Positions 24,725 to 50,991 are shown, numbered from the stretch's first letter. The stretch is DNA of 64,000 nt from Nitrospirota bacterium (GCA_963703955.1 CAVPGK010000013.1:104295-168294); one strand, 5' to 3'. The notes: generated by a model not told the origin, from the letters alone. Program-made: numbers and translations.

Positions 24725-24739
24725 GCAAGAGCGATGCCA
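24725..24739 (-). promoter_or_regulatory. sigma-54-type -24/-12 promoter TGGCATcgctcTTGC
   Basis: GG and GC are spaced as in the RpoN consensus TGGCAC-N5-TTGCW. It lies upstream of the DUF3365-cupredoxin gene string. Confidence 0.5.
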
Positions 24740-24789
24740 ATGCTAATGAGCCGAAATGACCAGAGCGTTTCCACGTGATCGAGAGATCC

Positions 24790-24806
24790 TGTAGCCTTCT
24801 GCTACA
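24790..24806 (-). promoter_or_regulatory. palindrome TGTAGC-AGAAG-GCTACA (candidate activator site)
   Basis: Perfect 6-bp arms, 51 nt upstream of the -24 element. The 17-mer is identical to 50844..50860. Confidence 0.45.
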
Positions 24807-25253
24807 GACTTCGTTCTCCAATCTTCGGAAACAAGCCGTTCGCCACTGATACCGCAAGTCTTTGATTCAAAAGAAACGGCTGGGAAAGAATTTGGGGTGA
24901 GTGACGGGTTTCGAATTACTTAGACGTCCACCGCAACTGTCGAACATCGTGAGAATTCTGCATCGAGTGGGCAGACAAGGCAAGCCAAGCCAAGATTGGC
25001 CACCTGTCCGCAACTCCGCAACCCAGGCGCAACCTGCTTCGCGCCGGTGGGCGGTGCTCGGATTCGAGCCAGCAGATCACCCTCCTCTCGATTGCAGGGA
25101 ACGGCCTGGCAGGATGAGGCCTAACGCCCCAGGCCGTTCTCCGATCCTGCCGCAAAACGCTACGTTCGACGCCGCGATGACAACATTGAGGCCGGAAGAC
25201 CAACACTTCCCCGCAGGCACATCTGATGCAGTAAGATTCACACGAATTGGTGT

Positions 25254-25988
25254 GTGACGATGCCTGCTCCTCTACTAGACATTCAGAATCTCATCTTCGA
25301 GGTGGATCGACATCCCATTCTCGACAGCCTGAACCTCGCAGTCCAAGCTGGACAAATCCATGCGCTTCTCGGAGCCAACGGTTCAGGCAAGACCACATTG
25401 GCCTATGTCTTGATGGGCTGCGATGGCTATGCGCCGAGTGCCGGGAGTATTTTGTTCAATGGCACCGATCTCCTGCCCCTCAAAATGCACGAACGGGCCA
25501 AGCTGGGGATTACCCTTGCGTGGCAAGAGCCGGCTCGATTCGAAGGTGTCACAGTGCGCGAGTACCTGAGCTTGGGCAAGTCAGATTGTGATCCAGAACC
25601 GATGTTGAGACAGGTCGGTCTCGATCCGGACCGTTATCTGAACCGGCGAGTAGATAAGGCGCTTAGCGGCGGGGAACGACACCGGATCGAGTTGGCCTCA
25701 GTCTTATCGATGAAACCGAATCTCGCCATCCTCGACGAGCCGGCCGCAGGAATCGACATGCTCTCGATCAATCATATTATTGACATCATTCGCGCATTGA
25801 AAGAAGGTGGCGGTTCCGTCCTGCTGATTACGCACCAGGAAGAGGTCGCGCTCATCGCCGATCGAGCCTCGCAACTCTGCGCCGGCCGCATCATTTTTTC
25901 AGGCGGTCCTCGGGAAGCCGTGGATCATTTCCGTGGCCGGACCTGCGTCCGTTGCGATGGAGAAGTATGTAACTATGTCCGAGCTTGA
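25254..25988 (+). CDS. sufC: SufC-like Fe-S cluster assembly ABC ATPase
   Basis: 244 aa. Walker A GANGSGKTTL, signature LSGGERHR, Walker B LAILDEP, plus SufC-like context. An alternative ATG start is at 25260. Confidence 0.85.
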   Translation: MTMPAPLLDIQNLIFEVDRHPILDSLNLAVQAGQIHALLGANGSGKTTLAYVLMGCDGYAPSAGSILFNGTDLLPLKMHERAKLGITLAWQEPARFEGVTVREYLSLGKSDCDPEPMLRQVGLDPDRYLNRRVDKALSGGERHRIELASVLSMKPNLAILDEPAAGIDMLSINHIIDIIRALKEGGGSVLLITHQEEVALIADRASQLCAGRIIFSGGPREAVDHFRGRTCVRCDGEVCNYVRA

Positions 25989-26910
25989 TGAACTCAAAAA
26001 GACCTTGCCGATGGTCGGAGCCGAACCGGCGATCCTCGACGATACACACATCGCGCATGTCGTGGCGCACGGGCACCGCATCCTTAGTCAGCGGACCGTT
26101 GCGGGGCTCCGCGTCGAGATGGAAGAGACATCTGAGGCCATCATCGGGAAATTGGTGATTGAAGCCGGTGCGCGGATCTCTGAACCGATCCATATGTGCT
26201 TCGGTCTGGCCCATCCAACCGGCGTGCAGCAGATCAAGATCAACGTACAAGTACTCGAAGGAGCCCATGCGCGCGTGCTGTCACACTGTCTCTTTCCCTT
26301 CGCGAAAGCGGCAGAACATCGGATGCAGGCTGTCATGGAGATCGGCTCCGGTGCCTCGTTGACCTATACGGAGGGCCACTACCACGGTCCCCACGGTGGC
26401 ATGCAGGTTCTTCCCCACGCGACGATCAAGATCGGAAAAGGCGCGCATTATTTTTCAGACTTCTCCTTGCTGTCCGGCTCGGTCGGTAGTCTCGACATCG
26501 ATTATCTCGTTGAGGTCGAGGAAGAAGGCCTTGCCGAACTCAGCGCGAAGATCTTTGCACACAAGACCGATCGAATCATGCTCAAGGAAGCGGTGATTCT
26601 TCGTGGGGAACGATCACGAGGTCTCATCAAAACGCGTGTCGTACTGGAGGACGAGGCGCGCGCGGAGATCACCGGGATCACCGAAGCGTATGCGAAAGGT
26701 GCGCGCGGCCACGTGGATTGCATGGAAATCGTGCAGGGCCAGGCTCACGCCAGCGCGATTCCCATCGTGAGAGTCTTTCACCCGGAGGCGAAAGTCACTC
26801 ACGAAGCGGCGATCGGGAGCGTGGACAAGAAAGAACTGGAAACGCTGATGGCGCGCGGGCTCAGCCCGGAGCAAGCGGTCGAACTCATCGTGAGCGGGAT
26901 TCTCCGGTGA
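25975..26910 (+). CDS. short SufB/SufD family protein
   Basis: ORF track gives 25933..26910. I start it at ATG 25975, overlapping the sufC stop. The C-terminal ..HEAAIGSVDKKELETLMARGLSPEQAVELIVSGIL is the SufB/D signature. At 311 aa it is much shorter than classical SufB or SufD. Confidence 0.8.
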   Translation: MSELDELKKTLPMVGAEPAILDDTHIAHVVAHGHRILSQRTVAGLRVEMEETSEAIIGKLVIEAGARISEPIHMCFGLAHPTGVQQIKINVQVLEGAHARVLSHCLFPFAKAAEHRMQAVMEIGSGASLTYTEGHYHGPHGGMQVLPHATIKIGKGAHYFSDFSLLSGSVGSLDIDYLVEVEEEGLAELSAKIFAHKTDRIMLKEAVILRGERSRGLIKTRVVLEDEARAEITGITEAYAKGARGHVDCMEIVQGQAHASAIPIVRVFHPEAKVTHEAAIGSVDKKELETLMARGLSPEQAVELIVSGILR

Positions 26911-27062
26911 CCTGATATCCCGGCTGAGAAGACAAAACTGAACCCGCGTTGCCCTTCTTGCAGCGTGCAGTAGCGCGGACAAACGTCGCACTGGATGCGT
27001 CCATCCTCGAGTCGATGCCAATATTTCGTCGGCACGATCGTCGACGGCTGTGAGGTTGTCAT
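26911..27062 (-). pseudogene. 5' remnant of an AmmeMemoRadiSam-system radical SAM enzyme gene
   Basis: MTTSQPSTIVPTKYWHRLEDGRIQCDVCPRYCTLQEGQRGF.. matches the N-terminus of AmrS-type enzymes. Similarity ends where the sufB/D 3' end begins. A full gene would be about 330-350 aa. Confidence 0.5.
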
Positions 27063-27155
27063 GACAGGCTCCCTTGAGATCACGGCCGTGTGCGAGCATT
27101 ATGCCCATCAATTCCATTTGAGAATGGATGTACCCTTCCACCGAGCGATCGCCTC

Positions 27156-28217
27156 ATGCTGACGATTGACGGTTCCCGCTATTCCGGCAGTGGTACCATC
27201 GTGCGACAGGCGGTCGCTTTCTCCGCCCTGACCAGTCAGTCGATCCACGTGGTCAAGGCCCGAGCGAAGCGGGACAAGCCCGGGTTGCGTCCGCAGCACA
27301 TTCGCGTCGTTGAAGCCATCGCCGAACTCGTCACTGGATGCGCCGAGGGACTGGCGCAAGGCTCCCAGGAATTCACGTTCTGCCCCGGCCCGCTCAAGAC
27401 GGGACGGCACTATAGTTGGGACATCGGCTCTGCCGGCTCCACGACCATGCTGAGTCTCGGCATCCTGCCGGTCCTGGCCTTCGGGGGATCGCGGGTTACG
27501 GTTGAATTGCGAGGAGGCCTCTTCCAGGATTTTGCCCCGTCTGTTTTTCATCTCCAGCAGGTGCTGCTCCCGATGCTGCACAAGATGGGACTCCATACGG
27601 AAGTCGAGATTGGGCGGCCAGGCTACGTGCCCCGCGGTGACGGCATACTCCATCTCGCCGTGAAACCTCTCACTGAACCTTTCCGAGCCATCGCCAATGA
27701 AGAAGCGGGCCCCGTCACACGAGTATGGGGCATCGCCCTCTCCTCTCACCTCGAAGAACGGCGGGTCAGCCAGCGGATGGCGGACGCCGCACAAGATGTA
27801 CTCGCCAAGGCCGACTATCAGGCTGAGATCGAGGTTCGCCATGATACCGAGTCTCTGCAGCGCGGTGCCGCGCTGGCACTTTTTGCCGATCGCAAAGGAA
27901 CCTGGCGCCTCGGTGCAGATCAGGCAGGAGCGTTGAGAAGAAGCGCGGAGTCTATCGGCATGCACGTGGCCAATCAGTTGCTCGACGATCTCAAGTCCGG
28001 TGCGACGCTGGACCGGTTTGTTGCAGATCAGATCATTCCGTTTGCTGCCTTGGCGTCAGGCGAGAGTCAGTTCATCATTCCGACTATTACCGATCATGTG
28101 TTGACGAGCGCCTGGCTGGCTGACCTATTTATTGGCGGTCACGTCAGGACCGACGGTCAGCGACTGGTCATCAACGGAGTTGGGTTCTGGCCAAATCGCG
28201 ACCACACGACGAGTTAG
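27156..28217 (+). CDS. rtcA: RNA 3'-terminal phosphate cyclase
   Basis: ORF track gives 27090..28217. I start it at MLTIDGSRYSGSGTIVRQAVAFSAL (ATG 27156), the typical RtcA N-terminus. It also has ..GSAGSTTMLSL.. and the C-terminal DRFVADQIIPFAAL. Confidence 0.9.
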   Translation: MLTIDGSRYSGSGTIVRQAVAFSALTSQSIHVVKARAKRDKPGLRPQHIRVVEAIAELVTGCAEGLAQGSQEFTFCPGPLKTGRHYSWDIGSAGSTTMLSLGILPVLAFGGSRVTVELRGGLFQDFAPSVFHLQQVLLPMLHKMGLHTEVEIGRPGYVPRGDGILHLAVKPLTEPFRAIANEEAGPVTRVWGIALSSHLEERRVSQRMADAAQDVLAKADYQAEIEVRHDTESLQRGAALALFADRKGTWRLGADQAGALRRSAESIGMHVANQLLDDLKSGATLDRFVADQIIPFAALASGESQFIIPTITDHVLTSAWLADLFIGGHVRTDGQRLVINGVGFWPNRDHTTS

Positions 28218-28234
28218 CGAGAGCTTTGCTCCTT

Positions 28235-28524
28235 ATGGATATGCTTCACCAGGCCAGTCACCCCCCCCGCTTTATGGCCGATGCGATGCTCGGTCGCCAC
28301 GATGGCTGCGCAGCCTCGGGTACGACACGCCCTATGAGAAGGTCATCTCGGACGAGGTGCTGATCGAGCGTGTGATCGGGGAGAAACGGTGGTTGCTCAC
28401 TCACGAAGGATACTTGGCAGAACGCAAAGTGCTCCGCGATCGCCACACCTTGATCGCGAGCGATGACCTTGAAGGCCAGTTGCGGCAGTTCCATCAGGAC
28501 CTCAAGATCAATTTCGGGCATCAC
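28235..28524 (+). pseudogene. Mut7-C RNase domain (DUF82, PIN-like) gene remnant, frameshifted and 3'-truncated
   Basis: MDMLHQASHPPRFMADAMLGR reads from ATG 28235. At about 28297 it continues one frame over as RWLRSLGYDTPYEKVISDEVLIERVIGEKRWLLTHEGYLA..LIASDDLEGQLRQF. That is the DAMLGRLARWLRLLGYDT pattern of Mut7-C. There is no zinc-ribbon tail and no stop before the convergent dksA-like gene. Confidence 0.55.
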
Positions 28525-28902
28525 TTATTTCCTCAGCGCCGCTTGGACCTCCGTCGCTTGTGCACAAGGCACACACCTGGTCGCCGCCGGGAGTGCCTCC
28601 AGCCTAGACTGAGGGATGTCCTTTCCACAGGTCTCACATCGTCCGTACTGACCAGCCTCCAGTTTGACAAGAGCACGGTCGATCGCCTCAATCTCGGCCT
28701 TCGCTCTCTCATCCAGACGATCGAGCAGCTGAATCATTCTCTCCTCCTGCCCTCGCTCCTCCGCCTCGCTTTCGACGTCACCTTCAAGCCAGAGCAGCTC
28801 GTCTTCGGCCTGGGCGGCCTGACGGAAGAGGTCGCGCCGTTGTCCTGAAAGCTTCTTGCGAACATCTTCAAGCGGAAGCATCCCCACATCCCTCCTGCAC
28901 AA
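28525..28902 (-). CDS. TraR/DksA family zinc-finger protein
   Basis: 125 aa with a coiled-coil region, then a CETCGKDIPQSRLEALPAATRCVPC four-Cys finger. An alternative start is at 28881. Confidence 0.8.
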   Translation of the reverse strand: MCRRDVGMLPLEDVRKKLSGQRRDLFRQAAQAEDELLWLEGDVESEAEERGQEERMIQLLDRLDERAKAEIEAIDRALVKLEAGQYGRCETCGKDIPQSRLEALPAATRCVPCAQATEVQAALRK

Positions 28903-28904
28903 CG

Positions 28905-29216
28905 TCAGCTACAGCACTTTGCCATTTTGTCTTTCATAGCCTCTCTGTCAGCCTTGACAACTGCTTCGACATCCGCCTTTTTTTCCGCCATAAACCGTTT
29001 GCCACGCTCGATGGTGTCATCGAGGGCTGCTCGTGCCTCGTGAGCCTTCTCCAAAACTTCTTCCTCGGCCCTTCTGGCGTACCCTTTCAATGCCTGGCGC
29101 GTTTCTTCGCCCGACTTCGGGGCGAGAAGGATACCCGCGACCACCCCCGCAACGGCACCGCCTAAAAATGCAAGTGCAATGGCCTGTGCTGAACAACCGT
29201 TGTCCCGGCTCTCCAT
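28905..29216 (-). CDS. YtxH domain-containing protein
   Basis: 103 aa. N-terminal helix AFLGGAVAGVVAGILLAPKSGEETR, then a charged helical tail. Confidence 0.8.
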   Translation of the reverse strand: MESRDNGCSAQAIALAFLGGAVAGVVAGILLAPKSGEETRQALKGYARRAEEEVLEKAHEARAALDDTIERGKRFMAEKKADVEAVVKADREAMKDKMAKCCS

Positions 29217-30739: not shown

Positions 30740-30755
30740 TGCAACCGAGCGGCCA
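30740..30755 (-). promoter_or_regulatory. sigma-54-type promoter TGGCCGctcggTTGCA
   Basis: Anchored through the antisense ORF translation (LQPSGQL = ctgcaaccgagcggccagcta). It lies 78 nt upstream of the CBS start at 30662. Confidence 0.55.
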
Positions 30756-32049: not shown

Positions 32050-32065
32050 AGCAAAGCCGCGGCCA
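32050..32065 (-). promoter_or_regulatory. sigma-54-type promoter TGGCCGcggctTTGCT
   Basis: Anchored through the antisense ORF translation (SKAAAT = agcaaagccgcggccacc). Immediately upstream of dnaJ. Confidence 0.55.
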
Positions 32066-32232
32066 CCCTTGCGACATCAGGCTGAACCGTCGATAATTGA
32101 ATATTATTGTCCTGAAAAGTATCAAGATGTAAGGTCTAGGACTCATTCTTGAGCAATGCCAGTCTCAACGAAGGCCATTATTAAGCACACCTGAAAATAG
32201 ATGTTCTTCTGGGGAGCTTGAGGAAGAGGAAT

Positions 32233-32274
32233 TCTGCTACAGAAGGCATTCTCCTCGCGGGGCAGAAGGCTACA
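32233..32274 (+). promoter_or_regulatory. two sites related to the TGTAGCAGAAGGCTACA palindrome
   Basis: TCTGCTACAGAAGGC lies at 32233..32247. GCAGAAGGCTACA at 32262..32274 is an exact 13-mer of the palindrome. They sit about 170-210 nt upstream of the dnaJ -24 element. Confidence 0.35.
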
Positions 32275-33418
32275 TCGCAAACGCCCCAACCAGACGTGAG
32301 CACGGAATCAACACGGAATCAAATGGAGGACGTTCTTCACGCCAGCAGTCGGCCGCGCTGGCATTTCTTTTGTTCGTGGCTAGTGTGGCCGGCACTCAAC
32401 TGTGCGATGATGTGACGGGGAGGACGGTGGCATTTCTGCTTGGGGGCCATCCTGCTGCGAGCCGCGATCTTTTTTATATTATTCTTGTTCAACAGAGCAT
32501 CACTGGAGGATGCCATGCGACTGTTACTGGCGGCGCGCTTGGCCATTTCTTCGCAATCGAATCGGCTGCCGATTAACACGCTCCAACAGTTTGCGTCACC
32601 CCGCGAACCGTTCCGGCTTTTTCCAGTCTGCATCGCGCAGGATGCCGAGGACAAAGCCGGGGAGCCATCATAAATGCCTGACAGTCCTTTGTCCGGGGAG
32701 AAAGTCTGGTCTCATTGCCAGCTCAGGACCAAATCTCAGCAGGACCCAGACGGTCCGCACGACGATTGACAACGAGCGGTCTCGTCAAGTCGCGATCAAG
32801 AACAGTCTACGAGCGACTCTCCTCGGCGGCCGTCAGCACGCTCCGCGTCATGATTTCTGAGACGGTTTCCTCACATCCCACCTGATCAATGTCTGCTGGG
32901 TCGAGCGGCACATGAGATTTCTGATAGACGGGTAACCTGAGGTTGGAAGGGTGTGACGCCAACTCCTCCATCGGGCAAGAGGCTCACAATTCCAGGAGTA
33001 AAGGCGATCACAGGCTGGCGTGTAATCTGCTCATGCTCCATGTCATGATTCGACGTGTACGGTTGCGCAAGATCCCGGTAATGGAGAGGCGCCTCATCCT
33101 GATCGCTATTGAATCATTCAGGCTCTTGATGGATCGAAATATTTGGACAGTCGATTCGGGTATCGAGACTCGATGTTGCATGACAAGTCGCCCTAAAAAA
33201 ATAGCGTGAGGCACACAATGGACAACTCGCCGCACCCTACAATCACGGACCATCTCTCTCGGTTAGTTCTTTTGCTGCCCTTCGTCTTATCAGCGCTTCA
33301 GCTCCATGGCTTCCACTTCTCATTGGCATGCGGGATGCTCCACTCAACTAGTCGGAGACAGGGACGCTCCGAGAGCGAGTCAGTGGATATTTGACCCTAG
33401 CGACTCAATATTCACCTG

Positions 33419-33874
33419 ATGAAAATCATGATCACCATAGAGATTGCTCTCATCGCGGTTCTGATGGCCTCCTCCTCGCTCTCCTGGGCCTTGGACGGGT
33501 CGGAAGATTCTTCCAATCTTCACCATGAGTCAACAGCCTTGGAGGATGCCGAACGGGGCCGCAGCATCTACCACAAAATCGGTGGTTGCCATTTCTGTCA
33601 CGGATATGATGGCCACCTGGACAAGCGTCCTCGCTTATCCCCCAAGCTAGCTCATGAGATTGCCCGGTTAGCCCCGCCGCCGGCCAACCTCCGAGATCCG
33701 GAAAGTCTCAAATCACAAGATGATGACCAGCGTTTTCTTTCCATCAAATTTGGACATCCGAGCACCGCGATGTTTCCCAAGAGATTTTTGAGGGACGAAG
33801 AAATTATGGACTTGATCGCGTATCTGGCGGTACTCCGTAGTCAGGCGGCTGGGCCAAGCCGCAATCGACCTTAA
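33419..33874 (+). CDS. c-type cytochrome (monohaem)
   Basis: 151 aa with a signal peptide, a CHFCH haem motif, and a distal Met candidate in PSTAMFP. Confidence 0.8.
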   Translation: MKIMITIEIALIAVLMASSSLSWALDGSEDSSNLHHESTALEDAERGRSIYHKIGGCHFCHGYDGHLDKRPRLSPKLAHEIARLAPPPANLRDPESLKSQDDDQRFLSIKFGHPSTAMFPKRFLRDEEIMDLIAYLAVLRSQAAGPSRNRP

Positions 33875-34817
33875 GAATGGACCTAGAGGTGTCCACTATC
33901 GCGCGACCAATGCGCCAATCATTGTGGCTCTACAGCCATTCCTTGAGCGTGCCGTGTTGACTCTTTTGAGAACAGAACCCATAAAGGAAAACATGGCGGG
34001 ATTCATCCATTGCTTTTGGCCTTGCTGTTTTTTCGGCTCCGCAAAGCGGTTCTCTTGACTTCCTCAGGATTCCGCTTGGTCTTTTGCGGACAGGGCACGA
34101 TGGCCTCTTCGAGCAGTTGCTTCAATGACCAGGACATGACAGGGACTCGGGATCGTCATAAGCCTCTCCCACAAGATCATGCGATCGCTCGATGCCCGCA
34201 AAAGGCCCCGATCGTCTTCATCACCTCCTCATAAGGGAAGCTCTGAACCCCTGGTCTCCATTGCGCGCAGCACGATATCGCTAATAGAGACAAAAAGACG
34301 GCGTGATCCGCCTACTTCGATCACAACGCACTCAAGGATGGGCCATACCGCACTCACTCTGTCGTGCCGTCCGATTGGATCGGCCGGAAGGCGCTGTGCT
34401 TCGCCGCCTCGGCGATAGGCTCAGCTCCCGAGACTTTATGTCTCCAAGATCACGACGGTCTCACCATTAACCCTGAAATATCAACGCGTTCTGTTCAGAA
34501 GATCCGTTGTCGTCATTCTGATTCAGGATGGCGTGCTCAGCAGCACGTCCCTGGGGACCGAATGTATGTACTTGAGGACGATGCGGTTTCCAGGGAAGTC
34601 ACGTCAACATATTCAACTGCTTCACAAGAGGATATGTTGCGGATTTTTGAAGCGGATTCGGTCATTGCCTTGTGACCATTCCGGATACTGTTACGTCGGG
34701 CATTTTCAGGTTTGGAGTAGGAAGAGAGAAAAGAATATTTTTTTAGCGGCAAGAGTTACCAAGGAGTTGCCGTGGCGTTACCATTGAAGGGGATATGATC
34801 TACAAGTTATTGAAAGA

Positions 34818-34864
34818 TGGTGGGCCGTGCACGGATCGAACCTGCGGCCCGCTGATTAAGAGTC
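34818..34864 (-). tRNA. orphan 3' half of tRNA-Lys(CTT), not a functional tRNA
   Basis: Minus strand GA-CTCTTAA-TCAGC-GGGCC-GCAGG-TTCGATC-CGTGC-ACGGCCC-A-CCA reads as anticodon loop (CTT), variable loop, T-arm with one G-G mismatch, acceptor 3' strand and CCA. No GGGCCGT acceptor 5' strand or D-arm is found upstream. Confidence 0.6.
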
Positions 34865-35256
34865 CCACCGTAGACGTACCTCACACTCAGCATGACGAAT
34901 CGTCAGCAAAAGGGGAAGATTCGTGATGGCACACGTCATCCAGGTTGGCACCAAGCAACAGTGACTATACCTTGAGGCGAACTTTCACGTTTCTTTTTCC
35001 CGCCGTGCGCAGGCACAGTGACGCCCGTAGGAAATGGGGTGAGACTGAGGGTCCAACCCTTCGGAGCATAACGGAACTATGCCGGTCTGTATCGCATGCC
35101 GACGCGGCACCGTGGAGAGGGTTGACAACCGATTGAACACGCGCAAGAATCACGCGCCAGTTTTTGGGCCGTCTGCCCGCAATCGCCCTGGAGCCTGAGT
35201 TCCCCTTGACCGCGATCTCGCAGCCAGCGAAGTGAGCCGGTAGCCAAGAAGCGAGC

Positions 35257-39986: not shown

Positions 39987-40349
39987 TCAGAGGGCCGGGT
40001 AGAACGGCGCGAGCGTCCGAATGTAGCCGACCACCTCCAACATCTCATCATCGGTGATTCGGCCCTGCCATCCGTGCATGGGGCTGAAGGCGATCCCATA
40101 CGCAATGGTCGTCAATAATTCGAAATCGGTTTTGGAGCGGGACCGCGCCGTGTGGAAATTCGCGGGCGGTACGATCAAGGTGATGGCATCAGGGCCGTCT
40201 CCCTTGCCCGTCACGCCATGGCAGCGCGCGCAGTGTTCCTCGTAGATGGCTTGCCCGGTCCGTATCCGTCCTCCCTCTCCGTGCGCGGTGACCCACGCAC
40301 TGCAGAGCATGATACCCAAAACACCGGCGACAACCGCAGTCTTTTTCAT
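39987..40349 (-). CDS. c-type cytochrome (monohaem)
   Basis: ORF track gives 39987..40511. I start it at ATG 40349 (AAGGAGA upstream, signal peptide MKKTAVVAGVLGIMLCSAWVTA). CARCH haem motif. Confidence 0.8.
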   Translation of the reverse strand: MKKTAVVAGVLGIMLCSAWVTAHGEGGRIRTGQAIYEEHCARCHGVTGKGDGPDAITLIVPPANFHTARSRSKTDFELLTTIAYGIAFSPMHGWQGRITDDEMLEVVGYIRTLAPFYPAL

Positions 40350-40419
40350 TACCCGGTCTCCTTTCCGTGACGCCAGCCTATCGAATCGGGGAGTGACAGT
40401 ATTGCAGAATCTTCCACGG

Positions 40420-41277
40420 TTAGCGCACCACCAACACCGAGCCGCGCGCGCGATGGGCGGCGGAATGCGAAACGCTTCCCAGCAAGAACCGACTGAATCC
40501 TGAGCGACCATGGGACCCCAGGACGAGAAGATCGTGAGTGTCGGACTCCCGGACGATCACGTCGAGCGGATCTCCGCTGAACGCCTGGCCCTTCGCGGTA
40601 TAGTGTGTCCCGGTCAGCTCTCCCGCGATCCTGTCGACGAGCTCTTGGCTTGTCTGCAACGCGACTTCGCCCCAGGGCTCAAAAGCCGGGATGGCGACAG
40701 GGGTCATGCCATGGGGTGTCGGCACGACGCTGATTACCGTGAGCTGAACCGGCTTCTGAAAGGGATGGTGGTGAAGCCATCTTTGGAGACGCGCGGCATC
40801 CTCAGGGCCCTCGATCGCGAGTAAGACCCGCTGTAGCTCATGGATCGGCTGTTTCACGATGAGCGTTGGGCGAGTCGCGTGGGTGAGGACTCGGTGTGAC
40901 ACGCTGTCGAGGAACCACTCGTGGAGGCGCCCCAAACCGCGCGCCCCTACGACGACCAGATCGGCGCCTGTCGTCTCGGCGGCATCGAGAAGCACTGCGG
41001 CCGGTGTTCCGATCTCACAGACGCGCCTCACCGAGACTCCATCAATCGGAACAAGAGCCGCGGTCTTGTCGAGGACCTCTTTCCCTGCGTCCAACATCGC
41101 GCGACGAAACTCTTCAAATGCCTGTTTCGAGACGGCGGGCACCAAGAGCGGATTCTCGAAGGGTCGGAGATCCGTCGCGTGGACCAGCACGACCTCTTGT
41201 GGTGTATAGAGCTGAAAGGCGGTCTCAACGGCGGTGAACGCTTGTTCAGCCCAATCGACGCCGATGACGATTCGCAT
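40420..41277 (-). CDS. universal stress protein (tandem USP domains)
   Basis: 285 aa with two UspA repeats (..DLVVVGARGLGRL..SVSHRV.., ..DLLVLGSHGRSGFSRFLLGSVSHS..VLVV). Confidence 0.9.
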   Translation of the reverse strand: MRIVIGVDWAEQAFTAVETAFQLYTPQEVVLVHATDLRPFENPLLVPAVSKQAFEEFRRAMLDAGKEVLDKTAALVPIDGVSVRRVCEIGTPAAVLLDAAETTGADLVVVGARGLGRLHEWFLDSVSHRVLTHATRPTLIVKQPIHELQRVLLAIEGPEDAARLQRWLHHHPFQKPVQLTVISVVPTPHGMTPVAIPAFEPWGEVALQTSQELVDRIAGELTGTHYTAKGQAFSGDPLDVIVRESDTHDLLVLGSHGRSGFSRFLLGSVSHSAAHRARGSVLVVR

Positions 41278-41328
41278 GGTACCACTCCTTCGGTGGCGAT
41301 CATGAAAGGGTTGCGGGCTCGGCTCCTA

Positions 41329-41490
41329 TCAAAGGTCAGCACGAGATCGTTTCAAGTGGCGTCCCGTGACCAGAAAGAGCGCCTGGCCGGACCCGCGGCA
41401 TTTCTCGAGCGCGCACTCCAACTCGTAAGGGACCGTACCATCCACGCCAAATGTCCCGTCACAATCAAACGCCGTCATGCGGCGGTACAT
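41329..41490 (-). pseudogene. 5' remnant of a HAD-superfamily hydrolase gene (53 codons)
   Basis: Own translation: MYRRMTAFDCDGTFGVDGTVPYELECALEKCRGSGQALFLVTGRHLKRSRADL*. It has the DxDGT motif I and a GGGAGG RBS, but only about one fifth of the normal length. Not in the ORF track. Confidence 0.4.
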
Positions 41491-41528
41491 AGTGCCTCCC
41501 CGTTCTCGGGATCTGCGGGAGAGCCCAC

Positions 41529-42044
41529 TTAGCGCGTCCAGGTCACTCGGGCAAACTGTGTATCGTCGTTGTAGTGGAGGCTGAACTCGCCTTGGTAAGC
41601 ATGGCGCAAGGCCTCACCGATGCGCCGCGGGAGGTGCGTGTCGGTGGTCGCGATCATCATGCCATTACCCTTCTCTTCGACGGAGATGATTCGAGACAGG
41701 GGATGTTCGGCCTTGGCTTTTGCCTCTTCATGACGGATCACGCTGAGGATTTCCTGCTGATGTTCGATTGCGAAAGGACCGCTCACCGTCAACAGGCCTT
41801 GAGGGGATTGATGATTGATCCGTTGGCACGCCGGACACAAGGTTTCCTGCGCCCGGATCGGCTTGGCTTTCCAGGTCCACCGGCCTTTGTGGAACACGGC
41901 GCCGCACTGTGGGCAGACCGTTGGCTCCCGGAGTTTCCCTTGTGATTTCTCGCTGCCTGGGGGGTAGGCCTGCACGGGCCGGTCAGATCTTGTCGGTCGG
42001 GCAATGGGCTTCTTTGATCGTTCGGTCATGGATTTGCACTCCAC
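41529..42044 (-). CDS. BCAM0308-family (NMD3-like zinc-ribbon) protein
   Basis: 171 aa with CPQCGAVFHKGRW..CPACQR zinc ribbon and a conserved tail ..THLPRRIGEALRHAYQGE. The family name is from memory. Confidence 0.7.
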   Translation of the reverse strand: MECKSMTERSKKPIARPTRSDRPVQAYPPGSEKSQGKLREPTVCPQCGAVFHKGRWTWKAKPIRAQETLCPACQRINHQSPQGLLTVSGPFAIEHQQEILSVIRHEEAKAKAEHPLSRIISVEEKGNGMMIATTDTHLPRRIGEALRHAYQGEFSLHYNDDTQFARVTWTR

Positions 42045-42065
42045 TGGTAACGCGTCGGAAACAGA

Positions 42066-42743
42066 TCAAGCATGTGAAGGTCGAGCGGCGTCCCGAATGG
42101 CCGCCTCGGCCAATGCCAGATACCGAACCACATCGTCGTCTTCGACTTGACGGAAATCCCTGTACCGATTACCGACCGCAAAGAACGGCTCCGGCACCAT
42201 CAACACCAGCAGTTCGTCCACCATCGGCTTGATCTCTCGAAGGGTGTCGAGCGGGCCGACCGGAATACCTGCAACCAGTCGGCCCACGCGCCGGCTTCTT
42301 AAATCTTGGATGGTGGCGATGAATGTGGCGCCGGTCGCAATACCGTCATCCACGAGTAGGATCGTTCGATCAGTCAGGACCGGCAGGGGTCGTCCGTGGC
42401 GGTAGAGTATTCCTCGTCTCGCGATTTCTTCCTTCTGCGTCCGGATCTCGTTTTCCAGATAACCCGGAGAGGCGGAAAGCGCATCAATCACCTCCCGCGC
42501 GTGAGGGTTCAGATACACAGAGCCGGTCTCCGTGACCGCGCCAACGGCATATTCCGGATCGCCGGGGGCTCCCAGCTTGCGCGTCAGAAACACATCCATG
42601 GGGACGTGGAGAGCCTGACTTACGGCATAGCCAACCGCGACGCCCCCGCGAGGCAAAGCCAGGATCAGAGCGTTCGGATCGTCCCGATACGCCATCATTC
42701 GTTCAGCCAATACACGCCCAGCTTCTTCCCGATTCACAAACAT
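42066..42743 (-). CDS. phosphoribosyltransferase family protein
   Basis: 225 aa. ..LILALPRGGVAVG.. and the PRPP loop ILLVDDGIATGAT. Confidence 0.9.
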   Translation of the reverse strand: MFVNREEAGRVLAERMMAYRDDPNALILALPRGGVAVGYAVSQALHVPMDVFLTRKLGAPGDPEYAVGAVTETGSVYLNPHAREVIDALSASPGYLENEIRTQKEEIARRGILYRHGRPLPVLTDRTILLVDDGIATGATFIATIQDLRSRRVGRLVAGIPVGPLDTLREIKPMVDELLVLMVPEPFFAVGNRYRDFRQVEDDDVVRYLALAEAAIRDAARPSHA

Positions 42744-42767
42744 CAGAGAAGGTCCTCCATGACCCCT

Positions 42768-42962
42768 TTAACGGGTACCTATAAATAAAAATAAAGCTGG
42801 GGTGGCTGCGTATGGAAGTCCACCTGCGACGCGTACACCGATGAAAAGGATCGCGAGCAGACTAAATCCGGCGATGAGCCACCACAGCCTCCACGACGAC
42901 CGACCGGACACCGCCGTTGATTGCAGAAAAAGGCCTTCGAGGTCGTGCATCCTGGACCTCAT
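42768..42962 (-). CDS. small membrane protein (hypothetical)
   Basis: 64 aa from ATG 42962 (AGGAGG 5 nt upstream). One hydrophobic helix WWLIAGFSLLAILFIGV. Confidence 0.4.
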   Translation of the reverse strand: MRSRMHDLEGLFLQSTAVSGRSSWRLWWLIAGFSLLAILFIGVRVAGGLPYAATPALFLFIGTR

Positions 42963-42984
42963 GGTCACCTCCTGCTACAGTCGT

Positions 42985-43458
42985 TCAAGCGATTTTCACC
43001 TCGATGCTCTTCGGTCTCGCCTTCTCGGACTTAGACAGATGCACCTTAAGGACGCCGTCCTTGTAGTCAGCGGATACTTTACCCTCATCAGCATCCTCCG
43101 GTAGCGTAAAACTCCGCATGAAACTTCCATAGGCCCTTTCGACCCGGTGATATTTCTTGCCCTTTTCTTCCTTCTCATATTTCCGCTCACCCGTGATCGT
43201 AAGGACATTGTCATTGATGGTCAGTTTCACATCCTCTTTCTTGACTTCGGGTAGCTCGGCCTTGATGAGATACTCCTTCTCGTCCTCGGTGATATCCACG
43301 AGCGGAGTCCACTCCGCGACGGTCATCTCTTCTTTCCCGCCTTCCGCGCGTACCGGTGTGCGACCGAAGAGCGTTGACAGACGATTTTGCATCTCCTCCA
43401 ACTCTTTGAACGGATCCAAACGCATCTTGAATGGTTCCCAACGTGTTAGCGCACCCAT
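42985..43458 (-). CDS. Hsp20/alpha-crystallin family small heat-shock protein
   Basis: 157 aa. ..WTPLVDITEDEKEYLIKAELPEVKKEDVKL..ERAYGSFMRSFTLPEDAD..VSADYKDGVLKVHL. Confidence 0.9.
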   Translation of the reverse strand: MGALTRWEPFKMRLDPFKELEEMQNRLSTLFGRTPVRAEGGKEEMTVAEWTPLVDITEDEKEYLIKAELPEVKKEDVKLTINDNVLTITGERKYEKEEKGKKYHRVERAYGSFMRSFTLPEDADEGKVSADYKDGVLKVHLSKSEKARPKSIEVKIA

Positions 43459-43534: not shown

Positions 43535-43550
43535 TGCAGGTGGGATGCCA
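43535..43550 (-). promoter_or_regulatory. sigma-54-type promoter TGGCATcccacCTGCA
   Basis: Anchored through ORF 43211..43627 (NSGIPPA = aattctggcatcccacctgca). It lies 77 nt upstream of the hsp20 start. Confidence 0.5.
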
Positions 43551-43768
43551 GAATTGCAGTGATTGCCTAGTCCTAAGGTCTGGAAAGACGGCGCAATTTG
43601 GATGCTGGTTTGACTGAAGAGAGACAATGGCTTTTGACGTGGGGTGTTTCGGGTCAGCGGGCGGAACGATCATGTTGCGAAATTCCCCAAATCAACAGTC
43701 AGCCCGTGAGCCTGATATTCATGTGGAGACTGAACGTTGATCCGGACTCAGGAGTGGTTACTCTAATA

Positions 43769-45061: not shown

Positions 45062-45756
45062 CTACGAGAGAAAGGCCTTTCTCACGCGAATCAGAAAGTG
45101 ATCAAGAACTTTCGGATCGGCTTCATGACGGCAGTGAGAGAGAAGACCGGTGGCGACTTCTGTCCAAAGCTCCGCGAGGTCGATCACTTCACCTGCGCGG
45201 AAGGGGGCGTCTTTGAGGTCTGCAATGGTCTTGCCGATCGGCGTGTCGGCAATCCGAATGGTGAAACGGCCGGTCTCCAGGAGCTCACACAGGTTGTACA
45301 GGACACGTATAGAGGCGGCGGCATATTTTGCAGGCCGTCCATCTTTTTCTCCAAGAACTTCTTCCGTTGGTTGAGGGCATATCCGACGAAGGATTCGTAG
45401 GCTCGTTGGGGAGACCAGACTGAGGGGAACAGCGATCTGAGTTCCTCTCCCCAATGATCCATCGTGACGACCGGCGCCAGAAAGGTTTCCAGGATCAACG
45501 GCTGGCACTCGGCGGCGAGCGACAGGAAGAGGCCGATCTCCCAGGCGCTTTCATCTGCGACGCTCTTGATCATGCGAGCGCCTTGATACCTATAGCCGAC
45601 GCGAAACATCTCCGCCGTCGGGACCACGAACACGCTGCGGTAGTCCGCGTCGCTTTCAGGACCCGCGAGCCCGTGAGCCTGTGACCCAACAAGCACTTTC
45701 AAAATCGTGTGTTTGGTGTCCCTGGCTTCGGATCGCATTTCAGGGATCCCGTGCAC
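45062..45756 (-). pseudogene. nucleotidyltransferase (RlaP/YcgL-like) gene with a frameshift in an A-run
   Basis: The N-terminal part (..KVLVGSQAHGLAGPESDADYRSVFVVP..FVGYALNQRKKFLEKK) is in ORF 45184..45756. The C-terminal part (DGRPAKYAAASIRVLYNLCELLETGRF..) is in ORF 45062..45508. One extra A at about 45343..45349 restores a single frame. Confidence 0.7.
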
Positions 45757-45817: not shown

Positions 45818-46190
45818 TCAGTGACCGTTCGTGACGAACACGGCGTGCTGGACCGTGATATCCCTGAAGACCTGTCGCTTCTTGATACTGTGGCGCTCTT
45901 CCGAGCTCAACAGTTCGGCCAGTGTCTTGACCGCCTCGATCACGTGTTCGCCCTTGTTCAGCATCACGCATTCCGCCCGCTGCCCCATCGCCGCATCGGT
46001 GATCTCGGCGCGGGCGGGCATCCCGCGCTTGGCCAGGGTGTCAAGCACCTGGGTCGCCCAGATCACCGGAACGTGAAAGCAACTGTTCCAGAAGGTCGGG
46101 CTGGGGGAATGGTGTCGGTGCGGTTACCGATCTCTCTCAGCTCTTCTTGGTGGTTCTGGGCATGAAACTTTCCGACAACTCAGCACTGGC
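45818..46190 (-). pseudogene. pyruvate-kinase-like gene fragment (about 120 codons, multiply frameshifted)
   Basis: ORF 45818..46066 reads [46 protein letters not shown], like PK motifs PVI.ATQMLESM..PTRAE..D.A..V. Upstream pieces ([10 protein letters not shown] / QPDLLEQLL) lie in other frames. The rest of a ~470-aa PK is absent. Confidence 0.45.
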
Positions 46191-46735: not shown

Positions 46736-46751
46736 AGCACCGCATCCGCCA
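46736..46751 (-). promoter_or_regulatory. weaker sigma-54-like motif TGGCGGatgcgGTGCT
   Basis: The GG-N10-GC spacing is correct and it lies about 80 nt upstream of the CBS start at 46657. The -12 region is GTGC rather than TTGC. Not anchored by a tracked ORF. Confidence 0.3.
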
Positions 46752-46766: not shown

Positions 46767-46931
46767 TCAGCTCTTCTTTGTCGTCCTGGCGATGAAACTG
46801 GTGATTAACTGTTGCATGTTCTTGCTGCTGCAGGCGGGACAGGTAACGGCCACGGTCTCATGCTCTTTGAGCGTCATGGCAATGAGGGATTCCTTTCCGC
46901 AATCCAGACACTTGTAGTCATACATGGGCAT
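46767..46931 (-). CDS. FmdB-family (CxxC_CxxC_SSSS) zinc-ribbon protein
   Basis: ORF track gives 46767..47009. I start it at MPMYDYKCLDCGK (ATG 46931). The second Cys pair is CPACSS. Confidence 0.75.
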   Translation of the reverse strand: MPMYDYKCLDCGKESLIAMTLKEHETVAVTCPACSSKNMQQLITSFIARTTKKS

Positions 46932-47293
46932 GGCTGACTTCGGTAAGGGTGCTCCTCTAGCTGGTTCCGGCCCTACTAGGCCCGGTCGGCACCGTTCGGC
47001 CGGGCTCACCTTGACTCTTGATGATAAGCATCTCCTCCCGAATGCAGAAACAGTGGGTGCTGACTGAGTATCGCAATCGCTATGCCGCTCTGATTTAATC
47101 CACTAATTGGTTGATTCATTGGGCGCTTGGCAATCCATCGGTCTCCATGAGGCCAACTATGAAGGGAGAACGCACTTCGGCTGGCGCATTATTCCTCACT
47201 GCCGGATTCCCTGATGATGACGAATGCCGCAGCATGGGAGGGTGAGCCCATGGCACCCTTTCTTCTCGGAACCTGATTGCGTATCCTGGTAGG

Positions 47294-48379: not shown

Positions 48380-48453
48380 GAATTTGTTGATTGACGGAGC
48401 TGGTGATTTGATGAGTTTGCAATGGGATCAATCTTTCAATCGACAAATCAATA

Positions 48454-49008: not shown

Positions 49009-49020
49009 CGTGATGGTTGG

Positions 49021-49884
49021 TCACCGGATGATCAGCACGGGGTAGGGAGCCAGGTGCAGGACCTTGTGGGACACGCTGCCCAGCAGAAACCGGGAGGCCC
49101 CTTTCCGTCCACGACTGCCGAGGAGGATCAGGTCCATCTTCATGTCTGTCGCGTGCTGAAGAATCGCGTGTACCGGAGATCCGATTGTCGTGACGGGGGT
49201 CGCCCGATACTGGACCGTAGACAGCTGAGCGGCTACATCCTCGACAAATCTGGAGGCGCTTCGCAACGCCATTTCCTTCATTGACTGGGTATCTGAGACT
49301 CGTTCAGTCCATATCGGGTGGGTGAATGGGAGCACCGTCAGGACCGTGATCTCGACCGGATTCTTGAACGGCTTCTTCTTGAAGAATCGGATGGCCGCCT
49401 CTGCATCGTCGAGACCTTCGATCGCCAGAAGCACCCGTCTCAAAGACAGGATCGGCGTGCGGATGGTCAACACGGGGCAGGGCGCGTAAGTCACTACCCG
49501 GTGGGACACGCTGCCGAAAGCGATTTCCTTGATCGGGCCAAGGCCCCGCGCTCCCATCACGATCAGATCCGCCCGTTCTTTTTCCGCGGTGGATACGATC
49601 ACTTCCGCCGGTATCCCGACTTCAAGATGCGTGGAGATGGGTCCCACCGTGTTCGGGAGAATCGAGGCGACCCGATTAACCAGGCGTTTACCGTCTTCCC
49701 GCATGCTTTGTTCAACCATTGTGGAAAGCTCGCGCACAGCCTCCGGGACGATCATGGGATAGGCGGGCTCCGGCACATCAAGCGCGTGAAGGACGATGAT
49801 CTGTTCAGACGCAGGCAGGTGAGCAAGTGCTCGGGCTGCGTTATAGGACTGTTCTGAGTCGTCCACTGGCAACAGAATGCGCAA
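49021..49884 (-). CDS. universal stress protein (tandem USP domains)
   Basis: 287 aa with two UspA repeats (..DLIVMGARGLGPIKEIAFGSVSHRV.., ..DLILLGSRGRKGASRFLLGSVSHKV..). Confidence 0.9.
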   Translation of the reverse strand: MRILLPVDDSEQSYNAARALAHLPASEQIIVLHALDVPEPAYPMIVPEAVRELSTMVEQSMREDGKRLVNRVASILPNTVGPISTHLEVGIPAEVIVSTAEKERADLIVMGARGLGPIKEIAFGSVSHRVVTYAPCPVLTIRTPILSLRRVLLAIEGLDDAEAAIRFFKKKPFKNPVEITVLTVLPFTHPIWTERVSDTQSMKEMALRSASRFVEDVAAQLSTVQYRATPVTTIGSPVHAILQHATDMKMDLILLGSRGRKGASRFLLGSVSHKVLHLAPYPVLIIR

Positions 49885-49907
49885 GGGACCCTCCGTAAAC
49901 TCGATCG

Positions 49908-50603
49908 TTATAGGTCACTGCCCAGGTTCGACACATAGCGCCGGAACCATCCGCCTGCGTGGTTGGCGACCTGTTCCAGCGCTCCCGGCTCTTCGAAGAG
50001 ATGCGTCGCTCCCGGTATGACGATGAGTTGCTTGGGACCCGTAAGCAAGGCGAGGGCCTGCCGGTTCATCTCAATGACGGGAAAGTCATGGCCCCCGACG
50101 ATCAGGAGGGTGGGCGCGAGAACTTGTCGCAAGTACGGTTCGGCAAGGTCCGGTCGCCCCCCTCGCGATACCACCGCGGCGACCGTTTCTGGCTGTCGAG
50201 CAGCAGCCTGGAGAGCCGCCCCGGCACCGGTGCTTGCCCCGAAATAGCCGATGCGCAGCGCGCGTGTGCCTGGATCGTCATTCAGCCACTGAGTGGCTGC
50301 TAGTAGGCGGTCGGCCAGCAGGTCAATGTCGAACACCTTCGCGCGATCTTCAGATTCTCCTTCTCCCAACAGATCGATCATGAGAGTGGCCAGGCCGCTG
50401 TCCTGCAGGGTGCGCGCGACGAACGTATTACGAGGACTCAGCCGCCCGCTGCCGCTTCCATGCGCGAACAGCACGACACCGGTCGGACCGGGCGGGACGA
50501 CAAGGAGACCATCAAGAGTCATCCTCCCGGCTTTCACCTGAACTGGACGGGTTGTTCTCACGTCCATCGTCGGCCAACCAGATGAACTCCGTGCGTGCGC
50601 CAT
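49908..50603 (-). CDS. dienelactone hydrolase family (alpha/beta hydrolase) protein
   Basis: 231 aa. ..VLFAHGSGSGRLSPRN.. and nucleophile elbow YFGASTGAG. Confidence 0.85.
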   Translation of the reverse strand: MAHARSSSGWPTMDVRTTRPVQVKAGRMTLDGLLVVPPGPTGVVLFAHGSGSGRLSPRNTFVARTLQDSGLATLMIDLLGEGESEDRAKVFDIDLLADRLLAATQWLNDDPGTRALRIGYFGASTGAGAALQAAARQPETVAAVVSRGGRPDLAEPYLRQVLAPTLLIVGGHDFPVIEMNRQALALLTGPKQLIVIPGATHLFEEPGALEQVANHAGGWFRRYVSNLGSDL

Positions 50604-50639
50604 GCCTGATCACTCAACTAATACCTTCGGCGGGATATT

Positions 50640-50732
50640 TCAATGACATTCGGTCGGGCAGAAAACAATATACAGAAAGATCGCGATTCCGATGAGGACG
50701 GCGCCGACTATCAGCCAGGTGGTTCGTTGCAT
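50640..50732 (-). CDS. 30-aa membrane micro-ORF with Cys/His C-terminus (not in ORF track)
   Basis: Own translation: MQRTTWLIVGAVLIGIAIFLYIVFCPTECH*. AAGAGGA lies 5 nt upstream. It sits 36 nt upstream of the DLH gene. Confidence 0.35.
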   Translation of the reverse strand: MQRTTWLIVGAVLIGIAIFLYIVFCPTECH

Positions 50733-50778
50733 GCGGTCCTCTTTATAACTGACCTTCGTCCATCGCAATTCGCTATGC

Positions 50779-50793
50779 GCAAGAGCGGTGCCA
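50779..50793 (-). promoter_or_regulatory. sigma-54-type promoter TGGCACcgctcTTGC
   Basis: Perfect -24 hexamer and TTGC -12 element, 47 nt upstream of the micro-ORF ATG. Confidence 0.55.
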
Positions 50794-50843
50794 ATACTAA
50801 TCAGCCGAAATGACCAGAGGCTGTCGACGCGATGGAGAGGTCT

Positions 50844-50860
50844 TGTAGCCTTCTGCTACA
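50844..50860 (-). promoter_or_regulatory. palindrome TGTAGC-AGAAG-GCTACA between two divergent sigma-54 promoters
   Basis: It lies 51 nt from the minus-strand -24 element and 117 nt from the plus-strand one. Anchored through ORF 50797..51084 (PVAEGYK). Confidence 0.45.
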
Positions 50861-50976
50861 GGGGTGCCGGTGTGACTGTCGCAGGACTCCCCATTGGTTC
50901 CCGCTAAGTCTTCGTTCTCCATCGCGGAATGCGCGCCGTTTTCAGCCAAACTCTCATCGCTTGAAATTGCGAGAAA

Positions 50977-50991
50977 TGGCATTTCCCTTGC
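50977..50991 (+). promoter_or_regulatory. sigma-54-type promoter TGGCATttcccTTGC
   Basis: Anchored through ORF 50832..51035 (MAFPLL = atggcatttcccttgctc). It lies 35 nt upstream of the hemerythrin ATG. Confidence 0.55.

Follow-up and report, generated by a model that had tools for sequence, protein, structure and literature searches.

Which sigma factor reads the stress genes that crowd one part of a Nitrospirota genome, and do these genes answer to a common regulator? The question is raised by a stretch of 64,000 nucleotides (GCA_963703955.1, CAVPGK010000013.1:104295-168294; hereafter the window, in whose own coordinates all positions are given), which carries the 30-kb low-oxygen/stress island of a Nitrospira-like genome, with universal stress proteins (USPs), Hsp20, CBS proteins, hemerythrin, cytochromes c, DLH and PRTase proteins, DnaJ and formate dehydrogenase. 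An earlier, sequence-only reading had proposed that sigma-54 promoters, recognized by a -24 GG and a -12 GC element, recur at seven sites in front of at least six operons. Our analysis suggests that four of the seven flagged sites (24725, 43535, 50779, and 50977) look like genuine conserved sigma-54 promoters, and that promoters of this class, dependent on a bacterial enhancer-binding protein (bEBP) and in most cases accompanied by a likely enhancer of paired palindromes, probably serve three or more independent transcription units and, in addition, one duplicated copy. We put the probability that the window holds a real bEBP/sigma-54 stress or low-oxygen regulon at roughly 0.7.

All seven flagged motif strings are present at the positions and on the strands first given for them, and the GG-N10-GC spacing is kept by each of them as well as by the sites newly proposed below; their distance to the next co-directional open reading frame (ORF), put at 20-240 nt before, measures 22-230 nt. 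The sequence-only reading had named a background test, and when run within the window this test shows that the motif class exceeds shuffled sequence and that the strong sites are intergenic. TGGC-N8-TGC occurs 20 times (11.2±3.1 expected), TGGC-N7-TTGC 9 times (2.43±1.58 expected), and TGGCAY-N5-YTGC 4 times (0.62±0.78 expected), with none of 100 shuffles reaching the observed count for any of the three patterns, and all four TGGCAY-N5-YTGC matches are intergenic and oriented at a gene. An RpoN position weight matrix (PWM) gives 7 matches scoring at least 12 in intergenic DNA, against 1.14±1.06 expected (0 of 200 shuffles), the noncoding share of the window being 26% by a rough codon-usage gene map. 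All five matches scoring at least 13 are intergenic, and those scoring at least 12 are confined to 22-53 kb of the window. The extended consensus TGGCAC-N5-TTGCW is met by 24725, 50779, and 50977, and 43535 matches it except for a C at -14.

These counts bear on the simplest alternative, namely, that the motifs are chance occurrences of GG-N10-GC in GC-rich DNA and that the operons run on sigma-70-type or heat shock promoters. Three of the flagged sites (30740, 32050, and 46736) would fit this explanation, with PWM scores of at most 8.2 and no comparative support, as would the three PWM matches of at least 12 in coding DNA, where about 2 to 3 are expected. Yet no shuffle reaches the number of consensus matches, each of which is intergenic and points the right way; the blocks stay invariant in orthologous spacers that have otherwise diverged; and sigma-70-like promoters, of which 4.3 would be expected in 40-53 kb, are absent there. 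We therefore give chance next to no weight as a general explanation and consider it excluded for the four strong sites.

Related loci came from two scans. The scan of a genome collection with a DLH alignment yielded 13 Nitrospira-type loci among 80; the nearest DLH homologues are 67-76% identical and DnaJ homologues up to 81%, under Nitrospira or Nitrospirota names, and in the Nitrospira loci DLH-USP runs one way and USP-(cupredoxin)-USP-orf467-FdhB-FdhA-FocA the other. A metagenome scan with Hsp20 yielded 80 contigs, many of which carry hsp20-PRTase-NMD3-like-USP-cytochrome c, sometimes followed by Pat/ACS. Two of the four strong sites face away from each other in the spacer between the DLH and hemerythrin operons (50.6-51.0 kb), which is laid out as follows.

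49021-49884, minus strand: tandem USP gene (Pfam), in a DLH-USP synteny kept in Nitrospira loci
49908-50603, minus strand: DLH-family hydrolase gene (Pfam)
50640-50732, minus strand: micro-ORF MQRTTWLIVGAVLIGIAIFLYIVFCPTECH, 30 aa, the first gene after the promoter
50779-50793, minus strand: sigma-54-type promoter TGGCACcgctcTTGC of micro-ORF-DLH-USP, intergenic, PWM score 14.0
50844-50860: candidate upstream activating sequence (UAS) A, a perfect TGTAGC-N5-GCTACA between the divergent promoters
50877-50893: candidate UAS B TGTCGCAGGACTCCCCA, more degenerate, 33 nt from site A
50977-50991, plus strand: sigma-54-type promoter TGGCATttcccTTGC of hemerythrin-USP-cupredoxin-USP, 34 nt before the hemerythrin ATG, PWM score 14.7
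51026-53448, plus strand: hemerythrin, USP, cupredoxin-like, and tandem USP genes (Pfam and gene calls on matching contigs)

Both promoters are conserved in the relatives. On the minus strand, the GC of the -12 element lies 46 nt ahead of the micro-ORF ATG, and the orthologous position in eight loci (L003, L004, L009, L018, L033, L036, L056, and L060) reads [TC]GGCAY-N5-TTGC[TG], as TGGCAY-N5-TTGCT in four of them and as CGGCAT-N5-TTGC[TG] in the other four (L003, L009, L018, and L056); GG, GC, and the N10 spacing are unchanged in nine loci. The micro-ORF itself has homologues of the same length ending in CPTxCH in six of these loci (L003, L004, L009, L033, L036, and L060), always between promoter and DLH. 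The family is hydrophobic, with a 30-aa membrane pattern MxRxxWLL...CPTxCH and the C terminus CPT[DE]CH, and has no Pfam family; one possibility is that its product is a membrane-anchored metal or redox peptide. On the plus strand, an alignment of 10 Nitrospira regions upstream of the USP/hemerythrin operon (50% mean column identity) contains three invariant blocks and no others, namely, UAS A, UAS B (at which the conserved block CTGTAGCAGGACACCCC falls), and TGGCA-N6-TTGCT. This promoter lies 19-41 nt ahead of an ORF in nine loci, and the synteny USP-USP-orf467-FdhB-FdhA-FocA is kept downstream of it in relatives. UAS A is 50 nt from the -24 element of the minus-strand promoter (50793) and 116 nt from that of the plus-strand promoter (50977).

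The third conserved promoter belongs to the hsp20 operon.

43535-43550, minus strand: promoter TGGCATcccacCTGCA of hsp20-PRTase-NMD3-like-USP-cytochrome c (39987-43458), 77 nt before the ATG, PWM score 12.2
43673-43689: UAS-like element TGGGGAATTTCGCAACA with three mismatches, 122 nt upstream of the hsp20 -24 element

In the hsp20 alignment, [CG]TGGCAY-N5-[CA]TGCA is the sole invariant block near the gene besides the Shine-Dalgarno sequence, at 55-114 nt upstream in one contig group, with GTGGCACCGACAATGCA at about 305-320 nt upstream in another, and over 25 metagenome contigs retain this promoter. Farther upstream the alignment has a single further conserved block, in which the UAS-like element sits, and one relative (L140) carries TGAGGCATTTGGCAACA at -129. 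As a side observation, a string 14/15 identical to the hsp20 promoter (GGCATCCCAGCTGCA compared with GGCATCCCACCTGCA) occurs at 14009-14023 on the minus strand, where it faces the 3' end of a convergent DUF72 gene and has no co-directional ORF downstream. Likewise, a GNAT-acyl-CoA synthetase (Pat-like) gene (37125-39866, plus strand) runs toward the hsp20 operon in the window, whereas in L085, L088, L095, L096, and L140 it follows that operon directly and in the same direction, so that this genome has a local inversion here.

The fourth strong site proved to be a copy of the first.

24646-24678, minus strand: truncated micro-ORF MQRTTWHNQH*, 10 codons, left by the cassette duplication
24725-24739, minus strand: promoter TGGCATcgctcTTGC before Tll0287-like and fn3/CarboxypepD_reg-like genes, PWM score 13.5
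24790-24806: second perfect UAS palindrome, inside the duplicated cassette

A direct repeat of 148 nt, 91% identical, joins 24660-24807 with 50714-50861 and spans the UAS palindrome, the -24/-12 promoter, the leader, the Shine-Dalgarno sequence, and the first six codons of the micro-ORF. To judge from this repeat, 24725 is a paralogous copy of the 50779 module that now fronts Tll0287-like genes, and it looks like cassette duplication recruited new genes into the regulon. Because both promoters lie in one repeat, they count as a single sequence. We thus take 50779, 50977, and 43535 to be functional mainly on account of their conserved footprints in diverged spacers, and accept 24725 as a copy of 50779; with the three other flagged sites unsupported, the earlier count of at least six independent promoters was too high.

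Upstream of these promoters recurs an element that is new relative to the sequence-only reading, a 17-bp palindrome TGTRGC-N5-GCYACA, written out as TGTAGCAGAAGGCTACA. Its association with promoters was assessed over the window and 93 Nitrospira-like loci (751 kb), with at most two mismatches allowed and with de-duplicated PWM matches: the palindrome lies at -30 to -260 of 34 of the 139 matches, compared to 3 of 139 in a downstream control window and an expectation of about 0.04 per window, the figure of 34/139 overstating the number of independent events in that orthologues make up many of the comparative instances. The distances are concentrated at 90-165 nt, and there is often a partner site at a spacing of 33-34 nt, a pairing also found in L010, L033, L036, L056, L060, L095, L102, L105, and L117. 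Across the window and its relatives, the palindrome precedes genes for USPs, micro-ORF-DLH, 4xCBS, a fusion of HPF with a cold shock domain (HPF-CSD), dodecin, a YbaK-like editing protein, and adenosine kinase. Within the window alone, palindromes with up to three mismatches are not above chance (17 compared to 13.1 expected), so that the significance of the element comes from position and conservation only. Its 6-N5-6 geometry, the pairing at three helical turns, and the distance from the -24 element are as expected for the UAS of a bEBP, which is its likely role.

A palindrome alone fits any dimeric regulator, and equivalent gene sets elsewhere are run by conventional ones, as at the lxa locus of Burkholderia cenocepacia with its Anr/Fnr-like motif TGA-N6-TCA (PMC3721108). 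The TGGCA...TTGC blocks and palindromes might, on this account, be operators of Fnr/Anr-, DosR-, or LysR-type regulators. We find this highly improbable: the promoter block is nonpalindromic and combines the exact GG-N10-GC spacing with RpoN flanks, and it sits 20-80 nt before start codons with the palindrome 50-165 nt further upstream, a distance that is typical of a bEBP and beyond the reach of classical sigma-70 activators and repressors. An FNR/Anr box was also tried as the common motif and rejected, as it is not enriched (27 observed compared to 21.7 expected).

The remaining flagged sites and the sites that we newly propose form a weaker set.

25115-25131 and 25148-25164: UAS-like pair, 33 nt apart, upstream of the ABC/SufBD-like-RtcA string
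25214-25230, plus strand: weak new candidate cAGGCACatctgATGCA before the ABC/SufBD-like-RtcA string, 24 nt before the ORF, PWM score 10.4
30740-30755, minus strand: unsupported candidate TGGCCGctcggTTGCA before two CBS-pair genes, PWM score below 8
32050-32065, minus strand: weak candidate TGGCCGcggctTTGCT before dnaJ, with a poor -24 element, PWM score 8.2
32225-32241 and 32258-32274: UAS-like pair, 33 nt apart, between dnaJ and a degenerate promoter at 32358-32374 (plus strand)
33323-33339, plus strand: new candidate TTGGCATgcgggATGCT, 80 nt before a small cytochrome c gene (33419-33874), PWM score 14.4
46736-46751, minus strand: flagged site TGGCGGatgcgGTGCT with no UAS, PWM score below 8
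47073-47086, minus strand: alternative candidate GGCATagcgaTTGC for Zn_ribbon_8-CBS, about 140 nt before the Zn-ribbon ATG

For the dnaJ site (32050), the UAS-like pair is the one observation in favor. In L139, L161, L162, and L163, the dnaJ orthologues have no promoter of their own but sit within longer operons that are read from promoters several kilobases away on the upstream side, and a conserved dnaJ-specific promoter is accordingly rejected; the dnaJ-containing operons of L161 and L163 begin with TGG[CT]ATGAAT[CA]TTGAT, and in L161 a perfect palindrome stands between two divergent promoters. The motif at 30755 is absent from the one available orthologous dnaJ-CBS spacer (L139). The site at 46751 lies 16 nt past the stop codon of a Zn_ribbon_8 gene (46767-46931, minus strand) that the sequence-only reading had overlooked, and is probably not a promoter. 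A third conserved promoter of the relatives (e.g., L033 15321) was considered as its orthologue and rejected, since it fronts an unrelated 346-aa protein with no Pfam match. The better candidate for Zn_ribbon_8-CBS would be 47073-47086 (GGCATAGCGATTGC). The pattern GGCAY-N5-TTGC occurs just four times in the window, each time between genes, and this site is one of the four; it carries the same CGGCAT variant as the micro-ORF promoters of L003, L009, L018, and L056. Of the two other new candidates, 25214 has the form AGGCAC-N5-ATGCA, and the cytochrome c site 33323 has no counterpart before the single scorable homologue (L087).

The view that no enhancer-binding protein is encoded nearby holds for the whole window, which contains neither a GAFTGA loop nor a GESGTGK Walker A motif in any of the six frames and no Sigma54_activat domain among the approximately 55 ORFs scanned. 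The sigma-54 machinery does exist in the lineage: bEBPs with GAFTGA are present in loci of Nitrospiraceae and Nitrospiria metagenome-assembled genomes (MAGs; L015 and L059), an NtrC-type bEBP and a kinase lie directly upstream of a sigma-54-type hsp20 promoter in L081, and sigma-54-dependent regulators have been reported at Nitrospira nxr loci (PMC6606698; PMC7522533). The bEBPs of L015, L059, and L081 are candidate activators near the relatives' loci. Within the window, a PAS-PAS histidine kinase might possibly be a sensor that feeds the activator; its orthologue in L161 lies in a receiver-cytochrome-PAS-histidine kinase operon behind ATGGTATGGATATTGCT.

35257-36786, plus strand: PAS-PAS histidine kinase gene (Pfam)

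Several points weigh against a sigma-54 regulon as outlined here. The PWM is an approximation of the published consensus; the exact-pattern scans and the footprints are independent of it. The flagged sites 30740, 46736 (both below 8), and 32050 (8.2) deviate from the consensus at -22/-21 and are individually indistinguishable from chance. Neither rpoN nor an activator gene lies in the window, and the metagenome contigs carry no taxonomic label. The redundancy of the palindrome counts, mentioned above, belongs here too, and so does the uneven distribution of the palindrome: its perfect form is limited, within the window, to the duplicated DLH/hemerythrin module, the elements at hsp20, dnaJ, and ABC have two to three mismatches, and there is no palindrome at the cytochrome c (33323), CBS (30755), and 47073 sites. 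Such unevenness makes it possible that more than one activator is at work, or none at some of the sites.

This leads to the rival that we rank as the serious one, in which the promoters are real, several bEBPs with different signals each serve one or a few operons, and there is no single regulon; the island would then just have many sigma-54 promoters, perhaps like Nitrospira genomes at large. Besides the restriction of the perfect palindrome and its absence from three sites, this rival is favored by the hsp20 element, a three-mismatch variant with its own conserved flanks, by -12 regions that are operon specific (TTGCT as opposed to CTGCA/ATGCA), and by the differing bEBP types near the relatives' loci. 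Against it stands the recurrence of the same TGTRGC/GCYACA half-sites with 33- to 34-nt pairing before at least four gene families (USP, micro-ORF-DLH, 4xCBS, and HPF-CSD). On balance, we consider several separate activators unlikely and one dedicated regulon under one activator plausible.

If the regulon exists in the form that we favor, RpoN would read at least four transcription units: micro-ORF-DLH-USP; hemerythrin-USP-cupredoxin-USP, possibly extending into orf467-FdhBA-FocA-USP; hsp20-PRTase-NMD3-like-USP-cytochrome c; and the genes behind the duplicated cassette before the Tll0287-like genes. The RpoN holoenzyme would rest in a closed complex on the -24/-12 elements and stay silent until an AAA+ bEBP makes contact with that complex and hydrolyzes ATP. 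The enhancer would consist of two 17-bp palindromes placed 33 nt (three helical turns) apart and about 50-165 nt upstream, from which the AAA+ activator would, upon a signal, loop over and drive open-complex formation; a single UAS pair in the DLH/hemerythrin spacer could serve both divergent promoters. The activator would be encoded outside the window, is probably of the NtrC family with a Fis-type helix-turn-helix, and would couple its signal to a coordinated induction. What the sequences show is the motifs, their enrichment and conservation, and their co-occurrence with the palindrome; that the promoters depend on sigma-54, that the palindromes act as enhancers, which signal is sensed, and that one activator serves all the operons are inferences. 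For the signal, oxygen or redox limitation seems most plausible on three grounds, namely, (i) the gene content, with USPs, hemerythrin, cytochromes c, and formate dehydrogenase with FocA; (ii) the finding that USPs and adjacent clusters are the most induced proteins of N. marina at low oxygen (PMC8115632); and (iii) the analogy with the lxa locus (PMC3721108).

The gene labels of the sequence-only reading are broadly right by Pfam, which gives Tll0287/DUF3365; two CBS-pair genes; DnaJ; Hsp20-PRTase-NMD3-like-USP-cytochrome c; CBS...CBS-MgtE; micro-ORF-DLH-USP; and hemerythrin-USP-cupredoxin-USP. The label that did not stand is that of the ORF after Tll0287, which matches fn3_3/CarboxypepD_reg and not a cupredoxin. 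Other features of the window are recorded here for completeness. Rfam and tRNA scans of the window gave no matches. RNA-repair-type genes lie inside the island at 27090-28848 and 45184-45756 and encode RtcA, a Mut7-C RNase-domain protein, and an RlaP-like nucleotidyltransferase. An 80-aa ORF (45836-46075, minus strand) shares 91% identity with the C terminus of a 634-aa protein of L162 that has a pyruvate kinase domain; the ORF is apparently what remains of a gene and hints at decay or rearrangement within the island. The Zn_ribbon_8 gene is FmdB type and directly upstream of the CBS gene, and its 3' end recurs, as a near-copy of 33 nt with 85% identity, at 46137-46169, just downstream of the CBS gene. 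About 3 kb (32100-35250) are nearly without long ORFs and have a GC content of 0.53, below the surroundings; this stretch contains only the small cytochrome c gene, the degenerate sigma-54-like promoter with its UAS pair (32225-32374), and strong PWM matches at 33015 and 33323, and remnants of the relatives' RNR/LonC genes were sought in it (32.1-35.25 kb) and not detected. Two further pairs of direct repeats lie in one ORF-poor stretch, 14668-14792/15838-15962 (125 nt, 99% identical), which flanks a DUF3015 gene, and 16219-16296/17157-17234 (78 nt, 90% identical), which an AbiTii gene adjoins.

The DLH family occurs at 53-69% identity in lineages as distant as Nitrosomonas, Gallionella, Actinobacteria, Cyanobacteria, Planctomycetes, Bathyarchaeota, and Nitrosotalea, which points to a wide horizontal spread of the stress gene set. 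In four Nitrosomonas MAGs (L013, L014, L021, and L024), a conserved motif [CT]TGGATGCCGG[AT][ACT]T[GT][AC]CA with GG-N10-GC spacing lies about 220-231 nt upstream of the DLH match, and it may be coding sequence or a diverged sigma-54 site.

Nitrospira, the main nitrite oxidizers of soils, waters, and wastewater plants, have to live through fluctuations in oxygen. The regulation of their response to these fluctuations is essentially undescribed, the relevant data that we found being proteomic only (N. marina, PMC8115632). The promoter and enhancer module provides a searchable regulon signature and a handle on sensor and activator, and the window would offer an example of the same "dormancy" gene set rewired onto sigma-54. 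We found no literature description of sigma-54 promoters or of the TGTRGC-N5-GCYACA palindrome before Nitrospira stress genes; the regulon and its cis code are thus apparently undescribed so far, and the mechanism is ordinary. Activation of sigma-54 by bEBPs is itself textbook knowledge, and the value lies in the regulon and cis code, with no new principle. Going further, we tentatively propose, at somewhat short of even odds, a Nitrospira "hibernation" regulon in which one oxygen- or redox-responsive bEBP on paired palindromes would fire the sigma-54 promoters of USPs, Hsp20, CBS proteins, HPF, hemerythrin, cytochromes, and formate dehydrogenase. If this is true, it would be a third, independently evolved wiring of a horizontally shared hypoxia survival gene set, beside mycobacterial DosR and Burkholderia lxa Anr/Fnr, and the regulon would grow by duplication of whole UAS-promoter-leader cassettes, as in the 148-nt repeat.

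Among known systems, the low-oxygen USP clusters of N. marina belong to the same lineage at the genus level, and there, too, USPs with their neighboring clusters stand out, as the most strongly induced of 93 proteins that respond to oxygen limitation; the study that describes them differs in reporting no promoter, sigma factor, or activator (PMC8115632). The lxa locus of B. cenocepacia, a low-oxygen-induced set of USPs, a small heat shock protein, cytochromes, regulators, and metabolic genes with one motif at many intergenic points (PMC3721108), is likewise a clustered low-oxygen stress island sharing an upstream motif. That motif is Anr/Fnr-like and of the sigma-70 class, whereas the window combines sigma-54-type promoters with a distant palindrome and shows no enrichment of FNR boxes. 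The DosR regulon of M. tuberculosis, with tandem USPs, alpha-crystallin/Hsp20, a CBS protein, and PRTase/DLH-type proteins, overlaps the window in gene content; DosR is a NarL-type response regulator that acts on sigma-70-type promoters. Actinobacteria are not known to have sigma-54, and consistent with this, the loci of the homologues of the window's DLH protein in Mycolicibacterium and Nocardia have no -24/-12 motif.

In enterobacteria, stress, chaperone, and RNA repair genes are under sigma-54 control, as exemplified by pspA with PspF, ibpB, and rtcBA with RtcR. The window resembles these systems in having a small heat shock gene with a -24/-12 promoter and also in containing rtcA and an RlaP-like gene. 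The enterobacterial operons are single and each has an adjacent dedicated activator, whereas in the window several operons share motifs with no adjacent activator, and rtcA, unlike enterobacterial rtc, has only the weak candidate promoter at 25214-25230. The promoter and enhancer layout itself is that of NtrC at glnAp2 and of NifA at the nifH promoters, with -24 GG/-12 GC as TGGCAC-N5-TTGCW and two dyad sites about 100-150 bp upstream. NtrC sites read TGCACC-N5-GGTGCA and the NifA UAS reads TGT-N10-ACA; the window palindrome repeats the 6-N5-6 layout of the former over 17 bp and, as TGT-N11-ACA, is one base longer than the latter. It differs from both in its half-site, TGTRGC, in targets that are stress and low-oxygen rather than nitrogen genes, and in a UAS pair that appears to serve two divergent promoters.

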